Source: a virus | Taxonomy: Duplodnaviria; Heunggongvirae; Uroviricota; Caudoviricetes | Reading direction: 5' to 3' (one strand) | DNA: 15,628 nucleotides | IMG/VR virus record: IMGVR_UViG_2724679293_000002 | Shown: in pieces, positions 1-12,562 of the stretch | Position numbering within the stretch: the first letter of the stretch is position 1 | Layout: each line of letters opens with the position of its first letter | Program-made: the position numbers and the translations under genes | The notes under the pieces: model-generated | Databases searched by the model: none | What the model was told of the DNA's origin: nothing | The model's input: the letters and a program-made list of their open reading frames with translations, nothing else

Positions 1-1
1 T

Positions 2-628
2 GCAGATACGTCCGTTCGCACAATCTCCCTGCTGCCGGCAGCCGGAGAGGCTGCTGCGCAGGGCTGGAGCATTAAGGATGGCGGAATTCAGTTGTCAGAT
101 GGTGTATTTAAGATCACCAAGCAGAGCAATAAAACCTGGTCCCTGACGCATCCGGTGGATGACGCAATTACCCTGCTGACACAGGGCGGCAGACTGACCT
201 GTAAGTTCCGCCTGTCAGGCGCACTGACCAACAATCAGTTCGGGCTGGGGATTTATCTGTATACGGATGCTCCCGTTCCTGATGGTGTGGCGATGACGGG
301 TACCGGTAATCCGTTCCTGATGTCGTACTTCACTCAGACCACTGACGGCAGAGTGAATCTGATGCATCACAGGAAAGCCGGAAACACGAAGCTGGGGGAG
401 TTCGGCGATTACGGTAACGACTGGCAGACGCTGGAGCTGGTGTTCACCGCCGGCAGTGCCACGGTTACTCCGAAACTGAATGGAGTGGCTGGCCCGGCAT
501 TCCAGGTTATAAAAGACAGTCTGACACTGGGACTGAATGCGCTGACGCTGACGGATGTTACAAAAAATGCAGCGTATGGCGTTGAGATAGAAAGTCTGAT
601 GCTGGAGATAAATGCACCGGCAGCATAA
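2..628 (+). CDS. C-terminal fragment of a larger late-region protein of unknown function; 5' end lies outside the window
   Basis: The reading frame of the 92..628 ORF stays open back to position 2 with no stop, so the listed TTG start is probably internal. The translation is beta-rich and Gly/Thr-rich, with no motif I can assign. It sits where lambdoid phages carry cargo genes between Q and the lysis cassette. Confidence 0.5.
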   Translation, partial: ADTSVRTISLLPAAGEAAAQGWSIKDGGIQLSDGVFKITKQSNKTWSLTHPVDDAITLLTQGGRLTCKFRLSGALTNNQFGLGIYLYTDAPVPDGVAMTGTGNPFLMSYFTQTTDGRVNLMHHRKAGNTKLGEFGDYGNDWQTLELVFTAGSATVTPKLNGVAGPAFQVIKDSLTLGLNALTLTDVTKNAAYGVEIESLMLEINAPAA

Positions 629-930
629 TAAAAAAAGCCAGCGACTGACCTGAAAAAGAAGACGCTGGCTAAAAGGCCTTATATGTTTGTAGAGACTTAT
701 TTTTCACAGACAGCAATGATGCCTGTCAATATATTATCAATATGCGGATTGTTTCAGTTACAGATGCCTTATTAAGGAAAAAAACAGCCAGCACTGACTT
801 TCGGTGGAGAGGTGCTGGCTCAAAAGGATAGATGTACTTCACATGTTGCTTCTATATGGCAGTACATTTTCTGACAGACAGTGACGGATGTTGTCAAGAT
901 ATTGTGTCATTTATAACCTGAATCAGGGGA
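629..930. repeat. Two diverged tandem copies of a ~150-bp non-coding module
   Basis: Copy A (~629-780) and copy B (~779-930) align block by block: aaaaaaagccagcgactgac / aaaaaaacagccagcactgac, ctggctaaaaggcc / ctggctcaaaaggat, ttttcacagacagcaatgatgcctgtcaatatatt / ttttctgacagacagtgacggatgttgtcaagatatt. Each copy has an A-run followed by an inverted repeat. Confidence 0.6.
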
Positions 931-994
931 GGCCGGAATGTTATCTGGCATTTTTAGCAGAGCCTGAATGCCATAATCACGGCTCCCGGCGTTG

Positions 995-1030
995 GCCGTC
1001 AGTGGGTGACACTGGCGGCTTTTTTGTTTT
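995..1030 (+). terminator. Rho-independent terminator-like hairpin with T-run upstream of the holin gene
   Basis: A 10-bp stem (gccgtcagtg / cactggcggc, one G-U pair) with a 5-nt loop is followed by tttttttgtttt. Confidence 0.5.
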
Positions 1031-1075
1031 TCTTTACTTTCATTTTCTGTCGGCGGTGACGGAGACATACATCAG

Positions 1076-1282
1076 ATGGAAAAAATCACAACAGGTGTGT
1101 CATACACCACGTCAGCGGTGGGGACGGGATACTGGTTACTGCAGCTGCTGGACAAAGTCTCTCCGTCCCAGTGGGTGGCAATAGGTGTGCTGGGAAGTCT
1201 GCTGTTTGGCCTGCTGACGTATCTGACAAATCTTTATTTCAAGATTAAAGAAGATAAGCGTAAGGCTGCGAGAGGTGAATAA
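1076..1282 (+). CDS. S: Phage-21-type class II holin (pinholin), 68 aa
   Basis: The sequence [22 protein letters not shown]...[36 protein letters not shown] has two transmembrane domains and a charged C-terminus, matching my recollection of S21. A GGAG Shine-Dalgarno sits 11 nt upstream, and the gene lies directly 5' of the endolysin with a 1-nt start/stop overlap. Confidence 0.9.
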
Positions 1283-1779
1283 TGTCGCCGTCATTACGCA
1301 AGGCTGTTGCAGCTGCTATTGGTGGTGGGGCTGTTGCCATAGCGTCTGTGCTCATCACTGGTCCAGGTGGTAACGATGGTCTGGAAGGTGTCAGCTACAT
1401 ACCATACAAAGATATCGTTGGCGTATGGACTGTATGTCACGGACACACCGGAAAAGACATCATGCCCGGTAAAACGTATACCGAAGCAGAATGCAAAGCC
1501 CTCCTGAATAAAGACCTTGCCACGGTCGCCAGACAAATTAACCCGTACATCAACGTCGATATACCGGAAACAACGCGCGGCGCTCTTTACTCGTTCGTTT
1601 ACAACGTGGGCGCTGGCAATTTCAGAACATCGACGCTTCTTCGCAAAATAAACCAGGGCGATATCAAAGGCGCATGTGATCAGCTACGGCGCTGGACATA
1701 CGCTGGCGGTAAGCAATGGAAAGGGCTGATGACTCGCCGCGAGATTGAGCGTGAAGTCTGTTTGTGGGGGCAACAATGA
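1282..1779 (+). CDS. R: SAR endolysin (T4-lysozyme-like muramidase, R21 type), 165 aa
   Basis: The N-terminus carries a Gly/Ala-rich signal-anchor-release segment ([23 protein letters not shown]), followed by the lysozyme catalytic region [25 protein letters not shown]. It sits between holin and spanin genes. Confidence 0.92.
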
Positions 1780-2213
1780 GCAGGGTAACCGTTATTATCT
1801 CCGCTCTGGTTATCTGCATTATCGCCTGCCTGTCATGGGCTGTTAATCATTACCGTGATAACGCCATCGCCTACAAAGAGCAGCGCGATAAAGCCACATC
1901 CATCATCGCTGATATGCAGAAGCGGCAACGTGATGTAGCAGAACTTGACGCCAGATACACAAAGGAGCTTGCTGATGCTAATGCGACTATCGAAAGTCTC
2001 CGTGCTGATGTTTCTGCTGGGCGTAAGCGCCTGCAAGTCTCCGCCACCTGTGCAAAGTCAACGACCGGAGCCAGCAGCATGGGCGATGGAGAAAGCCCAG
2101 GACTTACAGCAGATGCTGAACTCAATTATTACCGTCTCCGAGGTGGAATCGACAAGATAACCGCGCAGGTTAACTACCTGCAGGAATACATCAGGACGCA
2201 GTGCTTAAAATAA
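1776..2213 (+). CDS. Rz: Inner-membrane spanin Rz (i-spanin)
   Basis: It starts [29 protein letters not shown], an N-terminal transmembrane domain followed by a coiled-coil-like region, as in lambda Rz. ATG 1776 overlaps the R stop (ATGA); the listed ORF start at 1764 is an in-frame GTG extension. Confidence 0.85.
1975..2160 (+). CDS. Rz1: Outer-membrane lipoprotein spanin Rz1 (o-spanin), embedded in the +1 frame of Rz
   Basis: [20 protein letters not shown] has a lipobox (VSAC), followed by the proline-rich [16 protein letters not shown]. An AAGGAG Shine-Dalgarno lies 8 nt upstream of ATG 1975; ATG 1981 is an alternative start. Confidence 0.8.
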
Positions 2214-2253
2214 TTTTAATTTCACTGAAATTTAACAAGTGACTTTCAGGAAA

Positions 2254-2280
2254 ATGCCTCGCAGATGCGGGGCATTTTTG
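2254..2280 (+). terminator. Rho-independent terminator-like hairpin after the lysis cassette
   Basis: Stem atgcctcgc / gcggggcat with loop agat, followed by ttttt. Confidence 0.6.
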
Positions 2281-2362
2281 TACCGGTATTTCACCGCGCA
2301 CCGCAGCGCACAATAAACACCGAACCTGACCCTTTGGAATGGGCCTTTGAGGATACCAGTTA

Positions 2363-2980
2363 GTGCTGGCGAGCCTCGGTGGGCTGGTTTCCTGTGCGGC
2401 AAAGGTTCATTTCAAAGAAGCAGGCAACGCCATGAATGAATTAATTGCGAATCATGACTTCGACTTTCGCCAGTTAGTTACCGCAGCAGAAGGTCAACCG
2501 GTAACTGACACCTTCCAGATTGCCAGGGCATTTGGTAAACGCCATCAGCATGTGATTAGGGCTATTAAATGTTTGAGATGTTCTGAGGAATTCTCGACAA
2601 CCCATTTTGGGGCCGTCGAGAAAATCAATGACTTAGGTATTTTTGACAAGAAACAGATTTACTACCGCATGGACTTTAGTGGCTTCGTTATGCTGGTTAT
2701 GGGATTTAACGGGGCAAAAGCCGATGCTGTTAAAGAAGCCTATATCAATGCGTTTAACTGGATGTCAGCAGAACTCCGTAAGTACAGCGAAAGTTATGAA
2801 GCAGAACGTAACGCCGTAATGCTGGAGTACATGAAAGAGAAGGATGTCGCCAGCATGTCAGGCCGTCTGCTCAATCGCTGGGGGAGAACGAAAAAACCTC
2901 AATTGCTTGCAAAGCTGGAACGTCTGGAGAGACAGGGACAGTTTTTATTACCGGGATTCGATAAAGGTATTCAAGCCTGA
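2363..2980 (+). CDS. Phage regulatory protein, Rha family (pRha domain)
   Basis: The motif FGKRHQHVIRAIKCL matches the pRha signature (FGKRH.NVLRDI) as I remember it. The start is ambiguous: GTG 2363 has a GAGGA Shine-Dalgarno 10 nt upstream (205 aa), while ATG 2432 has a weak one (182 aa). Confidence 0.75.
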   Translation: MLASLGGLVSCAAKVHFKEAGNAMNELIANHDFDFRQLVTAAEGQPVTDTFQIARAFGKRHQHVIRAIKCLRCSEEFSTTHFGAVEKINDLGIFDKKQIYYRMDFSGFVMLVMGFNGAKADAVKEAYINAFNWMSAELRKYSESYEAERNAVMLEYMKEKDVASMSGRLLNRWGRTKKPQLLAKLERLERQGQFLLPGFDKGIQA

Positions 2981-3167
2981 CACATTATGCGCTGTATCGT
3001 CGCCGTATTCCCGCATTAACCATGACCGTAGCCCGACGGGGAATTCCTTCTGCGTGAGTGTGCGGGAATAATCAAAAACGATGCACACCGGGTTTTACTG
3101 TGCTGACAGACGCAGGGTTACCCTCATAGTCGCTTTTCCGGTGCGATGGTGGAAGAAACCGGGATGT

Positions 3168-3362
3168 TCATCCATCATCACTTTGGATTGATGTATATGC
3201 TCTCTTTTCTGACGTTAGTCTCCGACGGCAGGCTTCAATGACCCAGGCTGAGAAATTCCCAGACCCTTTTTGCTCAAGAGCGATGTTAATTTGTTCAATC
3301 ATTTGGTTAGGAAAGCGGATGTTGCGGGTTGTTGTTCTGCGGGTTCTGTTCTTCGTTGACAT
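3168..3362 (-). CDS. Small ribbon-helix-helix-like DNA-binding protein (YlcI-like), 64 aa
   Basis: MSTKNRTRRTTTRNIRFPNQMIEQINIALEQKGSGNFSAWVIEACRRRL reads as a basic N-terminal arm, a beta strand (IRFP), helix A, a Gly loop and helix B. A homologous small ORF lies at the extreme right end of lambda and next to nohD in DLP12, from memory. Confidence 0.7.
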   Translation of the reverse strand: MSTKNRTRRTTTRNIRFPNQMIEQINIALEQKGSGNFSAWVIEACRRRLTSEKRAYTSIQSDDG

Positions 3363-3526
3363 GAGGTTGCCCCGTATTCAGTGTCGCTGATTTGTATTGT
3401 CTGAAGTTGTTTTTACGTTAAGTTGACGCAGATCAATTAATACGATACCTGCGTCATAATTGATTATTTGACGTGGTTTGATGGCGTAGATGCACGTTGT
3501 GACATGTAGATGATAATTATTATCAT

Positions 3527-4354: not shown

Positions 4355-8035
<3,681 letters not shown>

Positions 8036-8055
<20 letters not shown>

Positions 8056-9355
8056 TCTCCCGCATATTGCCAGCATGGCTTTTAATGAGCCGCTGATGCT
8101 TGAACCCGCCTATGCGCGGGTTTTCTTTTGTGCGCTTGCAGGCCAGCTTGGGATCAGCCGCCTGACGGATGCGGTGTCCGGCGACAGCCTGACTGCCCAG
8201 GAGGCACTCGCGACGCTGGCATTATCCGGTGATGATGACGGACCACGACAGGCCCGCAGTTATCAGGTCATGAACGGCATCGCCGTGCTGCCGGTGTCCG
8301 GCACGCTGGTCAGCCGGACGCGGGCGCTGCAGCCGTACTCGGGGATGACCGGTTACAACGGCATTATCGCCCGTCTGCAACAGGCTGCCAGCGATCCGAT
8401 GGTGGACGGCATTCTGCTCGATATGGACACGCCCGGCGGGATGGTGGCGGGGGCATTTGACTGCGCTGACATCATCGCCCGTGTGCGTGACATAAAACCG
8501 GTATGGGCGCTTGCCAACGACATGAACTGCAGTGCAGGTCAGTTGCTTGCCAGTGCCGCCTCCCGGCGTCTGGTCACGCAGACCGCCCGGACAGGCTCCA
8601 TCGGCGTCATGATGGCTCACAGTAATTACGGTGCTGCGCTGGAGAAACAGGGTGTGGAAATCACGCTGATTTACAGCGGCAGCCATAAGGTGGATGGCAA
8701 CCCCTACAGCCATCTTCCGGATGACGTCCGGGAGACACTGCAGTACCGGATGGACGCAACCCGCCAGATGTTTGCGCAGAAGGTGTCGGCATATACCGGC
8801 CTGTCCGTGCAGGCTGTGCTGGATACCGAGGCTGCAGTGTACAGCGGTCAGGAGGCCATTGATGCCGGACTGGCTGATGAACTTGTTAACAGCACCGATG
8901 CGATCACCGTCATGCGTGATGCACTGGATGCACGTAAATCCCGTCTCTCAGGAGGGCGAATGACCAAAGAGACTCAATCAACAACTGTTTCAGCCACTGC
9001 TTCGCAGGCTGACGTTACTGACGTGGTGCCAGCGACGGAGGGCGAAAACGCCAGCGCGGCGCAGCCGGACGTGAACGCGCAGATCACCGCAGCGGTTGCG
9101 GCAGAAAACAGCCGCATTATGGGGATCCTCAACTGTGAGGAGGCTCACGGACGCGAAGAACAGGCACGCGTGCTGGCAGAAACCCCCGGTATGACCGTGG
9201 AAACGGCCCGCCGCATTCTGGCCGCAGCACCACAGAGTGCACAGGCGCGCAGTGACACTGCGCTGGATCGTCTGATGCAGGGTGCCCCGGCACCGCTGGC
9301 TGCAGGTAACCCGGCATCTGATGCCGTTAACGATTTGCTGAACACACCAGTGTAA
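8036..9355 (+). CDS. C: Head maturation protease / scaffold C (ClpP/SppA-like), 439 aa
   Basis: It starts at GTG 8036 (VTAELRNLPHIASMAF...), overlapping the B 3' end by 20 nt. The listed ORF start at 7901 is an upstream open-frame extension. Confidence 0.92.
8750..9355 (+). CDS. nu3: Scaffolding protein Nu3, from an in-frame internal start within C
   Basis: ATG 8750 (MDATRQMFAQKV...) is in frame with C, corresponding to lambda Nu3. Confidence 0.8.
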   Translation: MDATRQMFAQKVSAYTGLSVQAVLDTEAAVYSGQEAIDAGLADELVNSTDAITVMRDALDARKSRLSGGRMTKETQSTTVSATASQADVTDVVPATEGENASAAQPDVNAQITAAVAAENSRIMGILNCEEAHGREEQARVLAETPGMTVETARRILAAAPQSAQARSDTALDRLMQGAPAPLAAGNPASDAVNDLLNTPV

Positions 9356-10819: not shown

Positions 10820-11215
10820 ATGACGAAAGATGAACTGATTGCCCGTCTTCAGGTGCTGGGTGAGCAACTGAACCGTGATGTCAGCCTGACGGGGACGAAA
10901 GAAGAACTGGCACTCCGTGTGGCAGAGCTGGAAGAGGAGCTTGATGACACGGATGACGCTGCCGGTCAGGACACGTCTGTCAGCCCGGAAAATGCGCTGA
11001 CCGGACATGAAAATGAGGTTGTATCAGCGCAGCCGGATACCGTGACTGATACGGCTGATCTGGTCACGGTTGTGGCACTGGTGACGCTGCATACTGATGC
11101 ACTTCACGCCACGCGGGATGAGGCTGTGGCATTTGTGCTGCCGGGAACGGCGTTCCGTGTCTCTGCCGGTGTGGCAGCTGAAATGACAGAGCGCGGCCTG
11201 GCCAGAATGCAATAA
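10820..11215 (+). CDS. FI: DNA packaging protein FI, 131 aa
   Basis: It starts MTKDELIARLQVLGEQLNRD, with an acidic central linker as in lambda gpFI. Confidence 0.9.
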   Translation: MTKDELIARLQVLGEQLNRDVSLTGTKEELALRVAELEEELDDTDDAAGQDTSVSPENALTGHENEVVSAQPDTVTDTADLVTVVALVTLHTDALHATRDEAVAFVLPGTAFRVSAGVAAEMTERGLARMQ

Positions 11216-11226
11216 CGGGAGGCGCT

Positions 11227-11601
11227 GTGGCTGATTTCGATAACCTGTTCGATGCTGCCATTGCCTGCGCCGATGAAACGATACGCGGGTACATGGGAAC
11301 GTCAGCCACCATGACATCCGGTGAGCAGTCCGGTGCTGTGATACGTGGTGTTTTTGATGACCCTGAAAATATCAGCTATGCCGGACAGGGCGTGCGCGTT
11401 GAAGGCTCCAGCCCGTCCCTGTTTGTCCGGACTGATGATGTGCGGCAGCTGCGGCGCGGCGACACGCTGACCATCGGTGAGGAAAACTTCTGGATAGACC
11501 GGATTTCGCCGGATGATGGCGGAAGCTGTCATCTCTGGCTTGGGCGGGGCGTACCGCCTGCCGTTAACCGTCGCCGCTGGAAGGGGGATGTATGGCCATA
11601 A
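11227..11601 (+). CDS. FII: Head-tail connector protein FII, 124 aa (about 7 aa longer than lambda FII)
   Basis: MADFDNLFDAAIACADETIRGYMG... The frame reads ...PAVNRRR-W-KGDVWP-stop, with TGG at 11578-11580 where I recall lambda having the TGA stop. Confidence 0.85.
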   Translation: MADFDNLFDAAIACADETIRGYMGTSATMTSGEQSGAVIRGVFDDPENISYAGQGVRVEGSSPSLFVRTDDVRQLRRGDTLTIGEENFWIDRISPDDGGSCHLWLGRGVPPAVNRRRWKGDVWP

Positions 11602-12170
11602 AAGGTCTTGAGCAGGCCGTTGAAAACCTCAGCCGTATCAGCAGAACGGCGGTGCCCGGTGCCGCCGCAATGGCCATTAACCGCGTTGCTTCATCCGCGA
11701 TATCGCAGTCGGTGTCACAGGTTGCCCGTGAGACAAAGGTACGCCGGAAACTGGTAAAGGAAAGGGCCAGGCTGAAAAGGGCCACGGTCAAAAATCCGCA
11801 GGCCAGAATCAAGGTTAACCGGGGGGATTTGCCCGTAATCAAGCTGGGTAATGCGCGGGTTGTCCTTTCGCGCCGCAGGCGTCGTAAAAAGGGGCAGCGT
11901 TCATCCCTGAAAGGTGGCGGCAGCGTGCTTGTGGTGGGTAACCGTCGTATTCCCGGCGCGTTTATTCAGCAACTGAAAAATGGCCGGTGGCATGTTATGC
12001 AGCGTGTGGCCGGGAAAAACCGTTACCCCATTGATGTGGTGAAAATCCCGATGGCGGTGCCGCTGACCACGGCGTTTAAACAAAATATTGAGCGGATACG
12101 GCGTGAACGTCTTCCGAAAGAGCTGGGCTATGCGCTGCAGCATCAACTGAGGATGGTAATAAAGCGATGA
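11592..12170 (+). CDS. Z: Tail completion protein Z, 192 aa
   Basis: It starts MAIKGLEQAVENLSRIS; length and position match lambda gpZ. Confidence 0.93.
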   Translation: MAIKGLEQAVENLSRISRTAVPGAAAMAINRVASSAISQSVSQVARETKVRRKLVKERARLKRATVKNPQARIKVNRGDLPVIKLGNARVVLSRRRRRKKGQRSSLKGGGSVLVVGNRRIPGAFIQQLKNGRWHVMQRVAGKNRYPIDVVKIPMAVPLTTAFKQNIERIRRERLPKELGYALQHQLRMVIKR

Positions 12171-12562
12171 AACATACTGAACTCCGTGCAGCCGTACTGG
12201 ATGCACTGGAGAAGCATGACACCGGGGCGACGTTTTTTGATGGTCGCCCCGCTGTTTTTGATGAGGCGGATTTTCCGGCAGTTGCCGTTTATCTCACCGG
12301 CGCTGAATACACGGGCGAAGAGCTGGACAGCGATACCTGGCAGGCGGAGCTGCATATCGAAGTTTTCCTGCCTGCTCAGGTGCCGGATTCAGAGCTGGAT
12401 GCGTGGATGGAGTCCCGGATTTATCCGGTGATGAGCGATATCCCGGCACTGTCAGAGTTGATCACCAGTATGGTGGCCAGTGGCTATGACTACCGACGCG
12501 ACGATGATGCGGGCCTGTGGAGTTCAGCCGATCTGACTTATGTCATTACCTATGAAATGTGA
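12167..12562 (+). CDS. U: Tail terminator protein U, 131 aa
   Basis: It starts [18 protein letters not shown]; ATGA overlap with Z. Confidence 0.93.

Follow-up and report, generated by a model that had tools for sequence, protein, structure and literature searches.

In the lambda-like prophage analyzed here, the head-tail joining gene FII carries a sense codon, TGG, at the position of the TGA stop of phage lambda and most of its relatives, and its product is extended by seven residues. Comparison with other genomes makes it close to certain that this substitution is genuine and inherited and that TGG is the derived, less common allele; it is probably an ordinary variant of small effect.

Gene context and the FII-Z junction

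The window, that is, the whole stretch of 15,628 nucleotides that was analyzed (IMG/VR record IMGVR_UViG_2724679293_000002), contains the following features at and next to the FII-Z junction.

11227..11601, + strand: FII (head-tail joining or head closure protein), extended allele, 124 aa (ORF list, Pfam, PDB alignment)
11578..11580, + strand: TGG (Trp118), a TGA stop in lambda and most relatives, with the derived base G at 11580 (alignment with lambda, Perceval and O26 11368; allele counts)
11581..11598, + strand: six further read-through codons, KGDVWP, from the old FII-Z spacer and the first Z bases
11583..11588, + strand: GGGGGA inside the FII coding frame, presumed to act as the Z Shine-Dalgarno sequence because it lies 3-8 nt ahead of the Z ATG
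11592..12170, + strand: Z (tail completion protein), 192 aa, the first 10 nt overlapping extended FII (Pfam PF06763 Minor_tail_Z, 274.8 bits; 99% identical to lambda gpZ, full length)
11599..11601, + strand: new FII stop TAA, out of frame in Z codons 3-4 (ATA AAA)
12167..12562, + strand: U (tail terminator), the ring contacted by the gpFII C-terminal loop in the virion (full length, one difference from lambda, D97E)

The lambda proteins nu1, A, W, B, C, D, E, FI, FII, Z, U, V, G and T all have colinear, full-length matches on the window at 88-100% identity (tblastn), and therefore the window represents the late morphogenesis region of a lambda-like prophage. FII occupies its place in the lambda morphogenesis order, between FI and Z/U, and its stop is the only structural departure seen in the morphogenesis region of the window. 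The FII product matches PF05354.17 (Phage_attach) over residues 8-105 with 70.1 bits (cut-off 26), and phmmer aligns its residues 1-117 to residues 1-117 of lambda gpFII (PDB 1k0h_A, E 1.6e-74). End-to-end matches for residues 1-117 were found in six lambda gpFII entries of the PDB (1k0h, 2kx4, 8k37, 8xow, 8xpm and 8xqb), and five substitutions separate the window protein from lambda FII over this range. A length of 117 aa, ending in RRR before the stop, is typical of the family without strictly defining it; in the window, RRR is followed by WKGDVWP.

CD45 is the nearest relative of the window, with 99.6% identity across 97% of its length, and for the genes in positions 1-3400, upstream of cos and nu1, the coordinates were carried over from the CD45 annotation.

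To 628: SASA-family carbohydrate esterase, 3' end
About 1076-1282: class II holin
1282-1779: lysozyme RrrD
1776-2213: Rz-like lysis protein
2363-2980: Rha-family regulator
About 3168-3362, - strand: YlcI/YnfO gene

The FII ORF starts with GTG, comprises a CDS of 375 nt and ends, in the ORF list of the window, in ...GRGVPPAVNRRRWKGDVWP. At the junction, lambda (NC_001416) and phage Perceval share the sequence cgccgcTGAaagggggatgtATGgcc, whereas the window and E. coli O26:H11 11368 share cgccgcTGGaagggggatgtATGgcc; here the window differs from lambda by one A-to-G transition in the third codon position, at base 11580. The first-pass annotation had read the FII tail as ...NRRRWKGDVWP, with TGG at 11578-11580, the stop at 11599-11601, a length of 124 aa and the Z ATG at 11592, all of which the sequence and the ORF list bear out. 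Its statement that lambda FII is 117 aa long and ends at TGA was likewise right (NC_001416: FII 7612..7965, Z 7977..8555), and a stop-codon loss that adds seven residues is a true description relative to lambda and most relatives, as the alignment and the allele counts given below indicate. The differing base, however, was misplaced to 11579, where TGA and TGG both have their middle G.

As a result of the substitution, the 11-nt FII-Z spacer of lambda gives way to an overlap of 10 nt, and the Shine-Dalgarno sequence and ATG of Z come to lie within FII, so that the overlap with the Z ribosome-binding site and start proposed at first reading can be read directly from the sequence; the extended FII stop lies 5 nt past the Z ATG codon (11592-11594). 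The length of the spacer is itself polymorphic: it is 12 nt in strain 19AR0254 (L005:26523-26536) compared to 11 nt in lambda.

Frequency, origin and carriers of the TGG allele

The two alleles were counted with probes of 55 bases in which the variable base is central (27+1+27), searched by megablast with a 28-base exact word, so that only the same allele matches. Among 5426 complete E. coli genomes, TGG was found at 214 places in 203 genomes and TGA at 3493 places in 2621 genomes. Five matches to the TGG probe are of lower identity, and the two of these that were inspected, in FORC_044 (L132) and strain 3385 (L133), turned out to be TGA alleles with 1-nt deletions and were rejected; therefore, about 198 genomes carry the exact TGG probe sequence. 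In both rejected cases the deletions lie at or near the FII stop and the Z start, and in strain 3385, where four consecutive genes are marked as frameshifted, this suggests an assembly error in homopolymer runs rather than biology.

Over the 474 bases from 11227 to 11700, which comprise FII and the start of Z, the identity is 100% in 40 of the 40 complete E. coli genomes among the matches listed. The exact 124-aa protein is RefSeq WP_000752961.1, named 'head-tail joining protein' and present on at least 1000 public contigs, as is its 117-aa twin; it is annotated as a 375-nt CDS in O26 11368, CD45, A15, PE164, STEC1585 and O103 RM8385. The TGG allele is not peculiar to the genome of the window and, with the protein already annotated in RefSeq and in reference genomes, it is nothing new.

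These observations bear on the possibility that an error of sequencing or assembly produced the G at 11580 and that the true sequence is TGA. The difference from lambda is indeed a single base in a G-rich context, and the poor assemblies of FORC_044 and strain 3385 have 1-nt deletions at exactly the same spot. Given, however, the exact 55-base stretch centered on this G in some 198 independently assembled complete genomes, the occurrence of the exact protein on the public contigs and the tie of TGG to one specific haplotype (see below), the chance that an error is the explanation is practically nil. The long form as the norm of the family can be rejected as well: in addition to the 3493 TGA copies, related proteins with identities as low as about 60% (from Salmonella, Citrobacter, Klebsiella, Leclercia, Cronobacter and Enterobacter) are overwhelmingly 117 aa long, and from these sequences the long form is a derived minority state. 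A sequencing error and a long form common among relatives had been named in the first-pass annotation as the two outcomes under which its reading would lapse; both are ruled out by the above counts.

In collections of phage and viral sequences the TGG allele is rare. Among GenBank phage records, that is, sequenced isolates, that contain the FII-Z junction, the 55-base probes found TGG in none and TGA in 84, and a pattern scan of IMG/VR with the codon left free yielded 117 TGA, 1 TGG and 2 GGA among 120 contigs. The genome frequency of 5.8% would naively predict about 5 TGG alleles among the 84 isolates; nevertheless, we do not treat the absence as significant because the genome sample is dominated by clonal EHEC and because IMG/VR itself has only 1 TGG in 120 contigs.

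The low frequency among phages brings in the main rival explanation, namely that the substitution is an inactivating or strongly harmful lesion which persists only in prophages that are freed from virion selection and kept for their cargo (nleH, cif, espJ, bor, iss). The cause would be either an extended C-terminus that blocks the contact between gpFII and gpU or translation across the Z ribosome-binding site that starves the tail of gpZ. The contrast between 0 of 84 phage isolates and about 5.8% of the E. coli prophage copies speaks for a lesion, and so does the concentration of most carriers in EHEC lineages with visibly degraded prophages; against it, the genome counts are inflated by clonal sampling of O26, O111 and O103.

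The history of the allele can be traced in part. None of the six sampled TGG genomes shows any other difference from the window over the 474 bases, and the identical haplotype with TGA is found in Perceval and 14 viral contigs; a uniform TGG haplotype with a TGA counterpart fits a single origin. The carriers listed are mostly EHEC of serogroups O26, O111 and O103, with a few pig, otter, rabbit-farm and human isolates, and at least two prophage backbones are represented. The first is a prophage that adjoins ybhB and carries the type III effectors nleH, cif and espJ, as in CD45; the second comprises DLP12-type prophages with nmpC/essD/rrrD/bor or iss. Strain 19AR0254 contains a near-identical sister of the cif prophage in which the allele is TGA and none of the virion genes is a pseudogene.

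The gene FI, upstream of FII (window 10820-11215), is about 88% identical to lambda gpFI, with one gap, compared to 95-98% for its neighbors E and FII, and looks like a local mosaic patch in this sequence comparison. The same FI protein (WP_000158868.1) accompanies the TGG allele in seven of the seven carriers for which the annotation was inspected (O26 11368, CD45, A15, PE164, STEC1585, O103 RM8385 and O111 11128).

The state of the virion genes differs among the carriers.

O26 11368 and O103 RM8385: IS66 element in the protease gene C; internal stop in K
O111 11128 and viral contig L006: IS inside FII itself
CD45: frameshifted J
STEC1585: frameshifted H
A15 and PE164: nu1 to J all annotated intact; nu1 to T match at full length
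The window: intact nu1 to T

The element within the TGG-allele FII belongs to the IS3 family (L131:10414-12049 in E. coli O111:H- 11128; L006:1-890 in the viral contig), and extensive deletions have reduced the O111 11128 prophage, at the argU/DLP12 site, to a remnant. Judging from these gene inventories, the TGG allele is not confined to degraded prophages, though many of its carriers are degraded. The presence of the identical allele in two backbones and in modules in which every virion gene is intact argues against a lesion and suggests spread by a working phage or by recombination.

Stop loss, the extended C-terminus and the translation of Z

The FII stop has been lost at least three separate times, to TGG, GGA and CAG, and in each case seven residues were added. 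The GGA allele, a T-to-G change in the first codon position, occurs in two IMG/VR contigs (L080:7116-7143 and L093:2934-2961), where the protein ends in ...NRRRGKGDVWP, so that the last six residues of the extension (KGDVWP) are identical to those in the window; it resides on a different, lambda-like haplotype with 16 differences, and the neighboring genes are full length compared to lambda. The CAG allele was found in a more distant FII relative of 124 aa (63% identical; protein P0066, L134:8001-8375, a contig from Logan SRR16828820) that reads ...cgc cgg CAG gga gga atg tta tgt cca TAA, that is, ...RRRQGGMLCP. Its cluster has gene calls for each of nu1 to I. All three read-through alleles end at a TAA in Z codons 3-4. 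The constant length of the extension follows from the fact that the next stop is the TAA supplied by the Z N-terminus (M-x-I-K); it is a by-product and not a sign of selection.

Repeated loss of the same stop, always with the addition of seven residues, is what might be expected if the extension were adaptive, with the WKGDVWP tail modifying the neck-tail junction or the overlap tuning the FII:Z ratio and thereby driving the spread of the allele, and the TGG module does occur in unrelated strains of bovine, human, porcine, otter and rabbit-farm origin. Yet the allele is at low frequency everywhere and absent from isolated phages, the number of added residues is forced by the conserved Z codons, the three extensions differ (WKGDVWP, GKGDVWP and QGGMLCP), no covariation is seen in gpU or gpW, and the carriers frequently decay; taken together, this makes an adaptive origin extremely improbable. 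The two other independent stop losses, which also occur in intact modules, at the same time count against the view that TGG is an inactivating lesion.

In lambda, the gpFII ring is a hexamer set between the gpW adaptor and the gpU terminator and allows the tail to attach; cryo-EM resolved residues 4-117 of the hexamer, which is ordered to the last residue, 117, and the C-terminal loop (108-117) contacts the O-loop of gpU in the virion (PMC10721106). Given the position of residue 117 at the gpU contact, an extension that starts at residue 118 begins at that interface. This contact, with residue 117 resolved in the virion, favors the lesion explanation, and seven extra residues, two of them tryptophans, could interfere with the contact between gpFII and gpU. 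No compensating changes relative to lambda were seen in the partners: gpU has only D97E, outside the O-loop (25-37), and gpW is identical. A search of the accessible literature for gpFII C-terminal mutants or tags returned nothing usable. All told, we regard a lesion as a real but unlikely explanation.

The effect of the overlap on Z can be assessed by comparison with the rest of the operon, which has overlaps of 4 nt (A/W, W/B and Z/U), 20 nt (B/C) and 26 nt (nu1/A). The FII-Z junction of the window has the layout of a coupled overlap, with the FII stop a few nucleotides from the Z start and GGGGGA inside the FII ORF. Given that working overlaps of 4-26 nt already exist in this operon, a large effect on Z would not be expected, although it is conceivable that the TGG allele alters Z expression. 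A search for RNA elements found no Rfam family in the window, and local folds at the FII-Z junction are no more stable than those of shuffled sequence (z about 0).

The identity of the new residue raises the question of UGA read-through. In E. coli, tRNA-Trp is reported to misread UGA with particular ease when an A follows (PMC5289835, citing Engelberg-Kulka 1981). The lambda stop is UGA-A and therefore the phages with TGA probably already make traces of the same 124-aa Trp protein. In an extended version of this idea, the 124-aa Trp form would be a normal trace product of all lambda-type phages and TGG a natural experiment in which every subunit is tailed and joining or the gpZ supply is measurably changed, helping to lock the cargo prophages (with the cif/nleH/espJ element) into the chromosome; we consider this highly unlikely. 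The hallmarks of programmed read-through are absent from the junction: in place of a retained, conserved leaky stop the window has the sense codon TGG, so that only one product is possible, and the extension is not conserved as protein among the three alleles beyond what the underlying Z signals account for. At the DNA level the extensions coincide with the ribosome-binding site and start of Z, a stretch that is under constraint of its own.

We return to the reading of TGG as a standing polymorphism that is tolerated or mildly harmful and has no mechanism dedicated to it; including the tolerance itself, we consider this a likely account as a whole. The A-to-G transition at 11580 changed the FII stop into a Trp codon, and ribosomes now continue past the former spacer of 11 nt and past the Shine-Dalgarno sequence and start codon of Z before they halt at the TAA of Z codons 3-4; the product is gpFII with a C-terminal WKGDVWP, encoded by a gene that overlaps Z by 10 nt. 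The change is heritable, arose on one common FII haplotype and is now present in the two or more backbones described above, and its frequency mainly reflects the fact that the EHEC lineages O26, O111 and O103 carry it. The sequences establish the substitution together with its direction, frequency and recurrence; that it is neutral or at most mildly harmful is inferred. If neutral or mildly harmful, the extended gpFII would still build the hexameric stopper ring, and Z would still be translated by coupling or re-initiation, like the other overlapping junctions of the operon. Tolerance appears likely from the genomic comparisons, given the full-length nu1 to T in the window, A15 and PE164, the two backbones, the independent stop losses among full-length neighbors, the overlaps that already exist and the misreading of UGA-A. 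Against tolerance stand the 84 isolates, none of which has TGG, the plainly defective state of several carriers and the possible clash at gpU, for which no compensation is seen.

Significance and comparison with known systems

Given that the allele is genuine and not an error, annotators should keep the 375-nt CDS. The gpFII stop is repeatedly lost in nature, with an outcome that is fixed by the first Z codons. If the extended gpFII is defective, TGG would serve as a convenient indicator that prophages have been domesticated in EHEC O26, O111 and O103; if it is functional, the C-terminus at the gpU interface tolerates additions, which would be useful for tagging the lambda neck. Neither outcome would alter the understanding of head-tail joining, so in this respect the variant matters little.

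The closest known system is lambda gpFII itself (PDB 1K0H, 2KX4, 8K37, 8XOW, 8XPM and 8XQB; PF05354; the stopper or head closure protein Hc1), which shares with the window the GTG start, the gene order FI-FII-Z-U and the spacer, Shine-Dalgarno and Z-start sequences. It differs in the TGA stop, the 117-aa product ending in ...RRR and the 11-nt gap before Z, where the window has TGG, 124 aa ending in ...RRRWKGDVWP and a 10-nt overlap. By contrast, WP_000752961.1, the protein of O26:H11 11368 and numerous further strains, is encoded by DNA identical to that of the window, with the same 375-nt CDS and the same 10-nt overlap onto Z, and therefore its 124 aa are the same; only the surrounding prophage differs, being intact in some strains and interrupted by IS elements in others.

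In E. coli, natural UGA read-through by tRNA-Trp, of which the Q-beta coat/A1 protein is an example, would likewise place Trp at the old stop. The window differs from such cases in that it has no stop at this position, so that 100% of the product is extended; it also lacks any programming or regulation and any conserved extension domain. Finally, the FII/Z arrangement of the window resembles the overlaps of the lambda late operon (nu1/A, A/W, W/B, B/C, Z/U and T/H), in which the upstream ORF ends just past the downstream start and contains the Shine-Dalgarno sequence. However, the FII/Z junction is an 11-nt gap in lambda and most relatives, whereas the overlap in the window stems from a point mutation.
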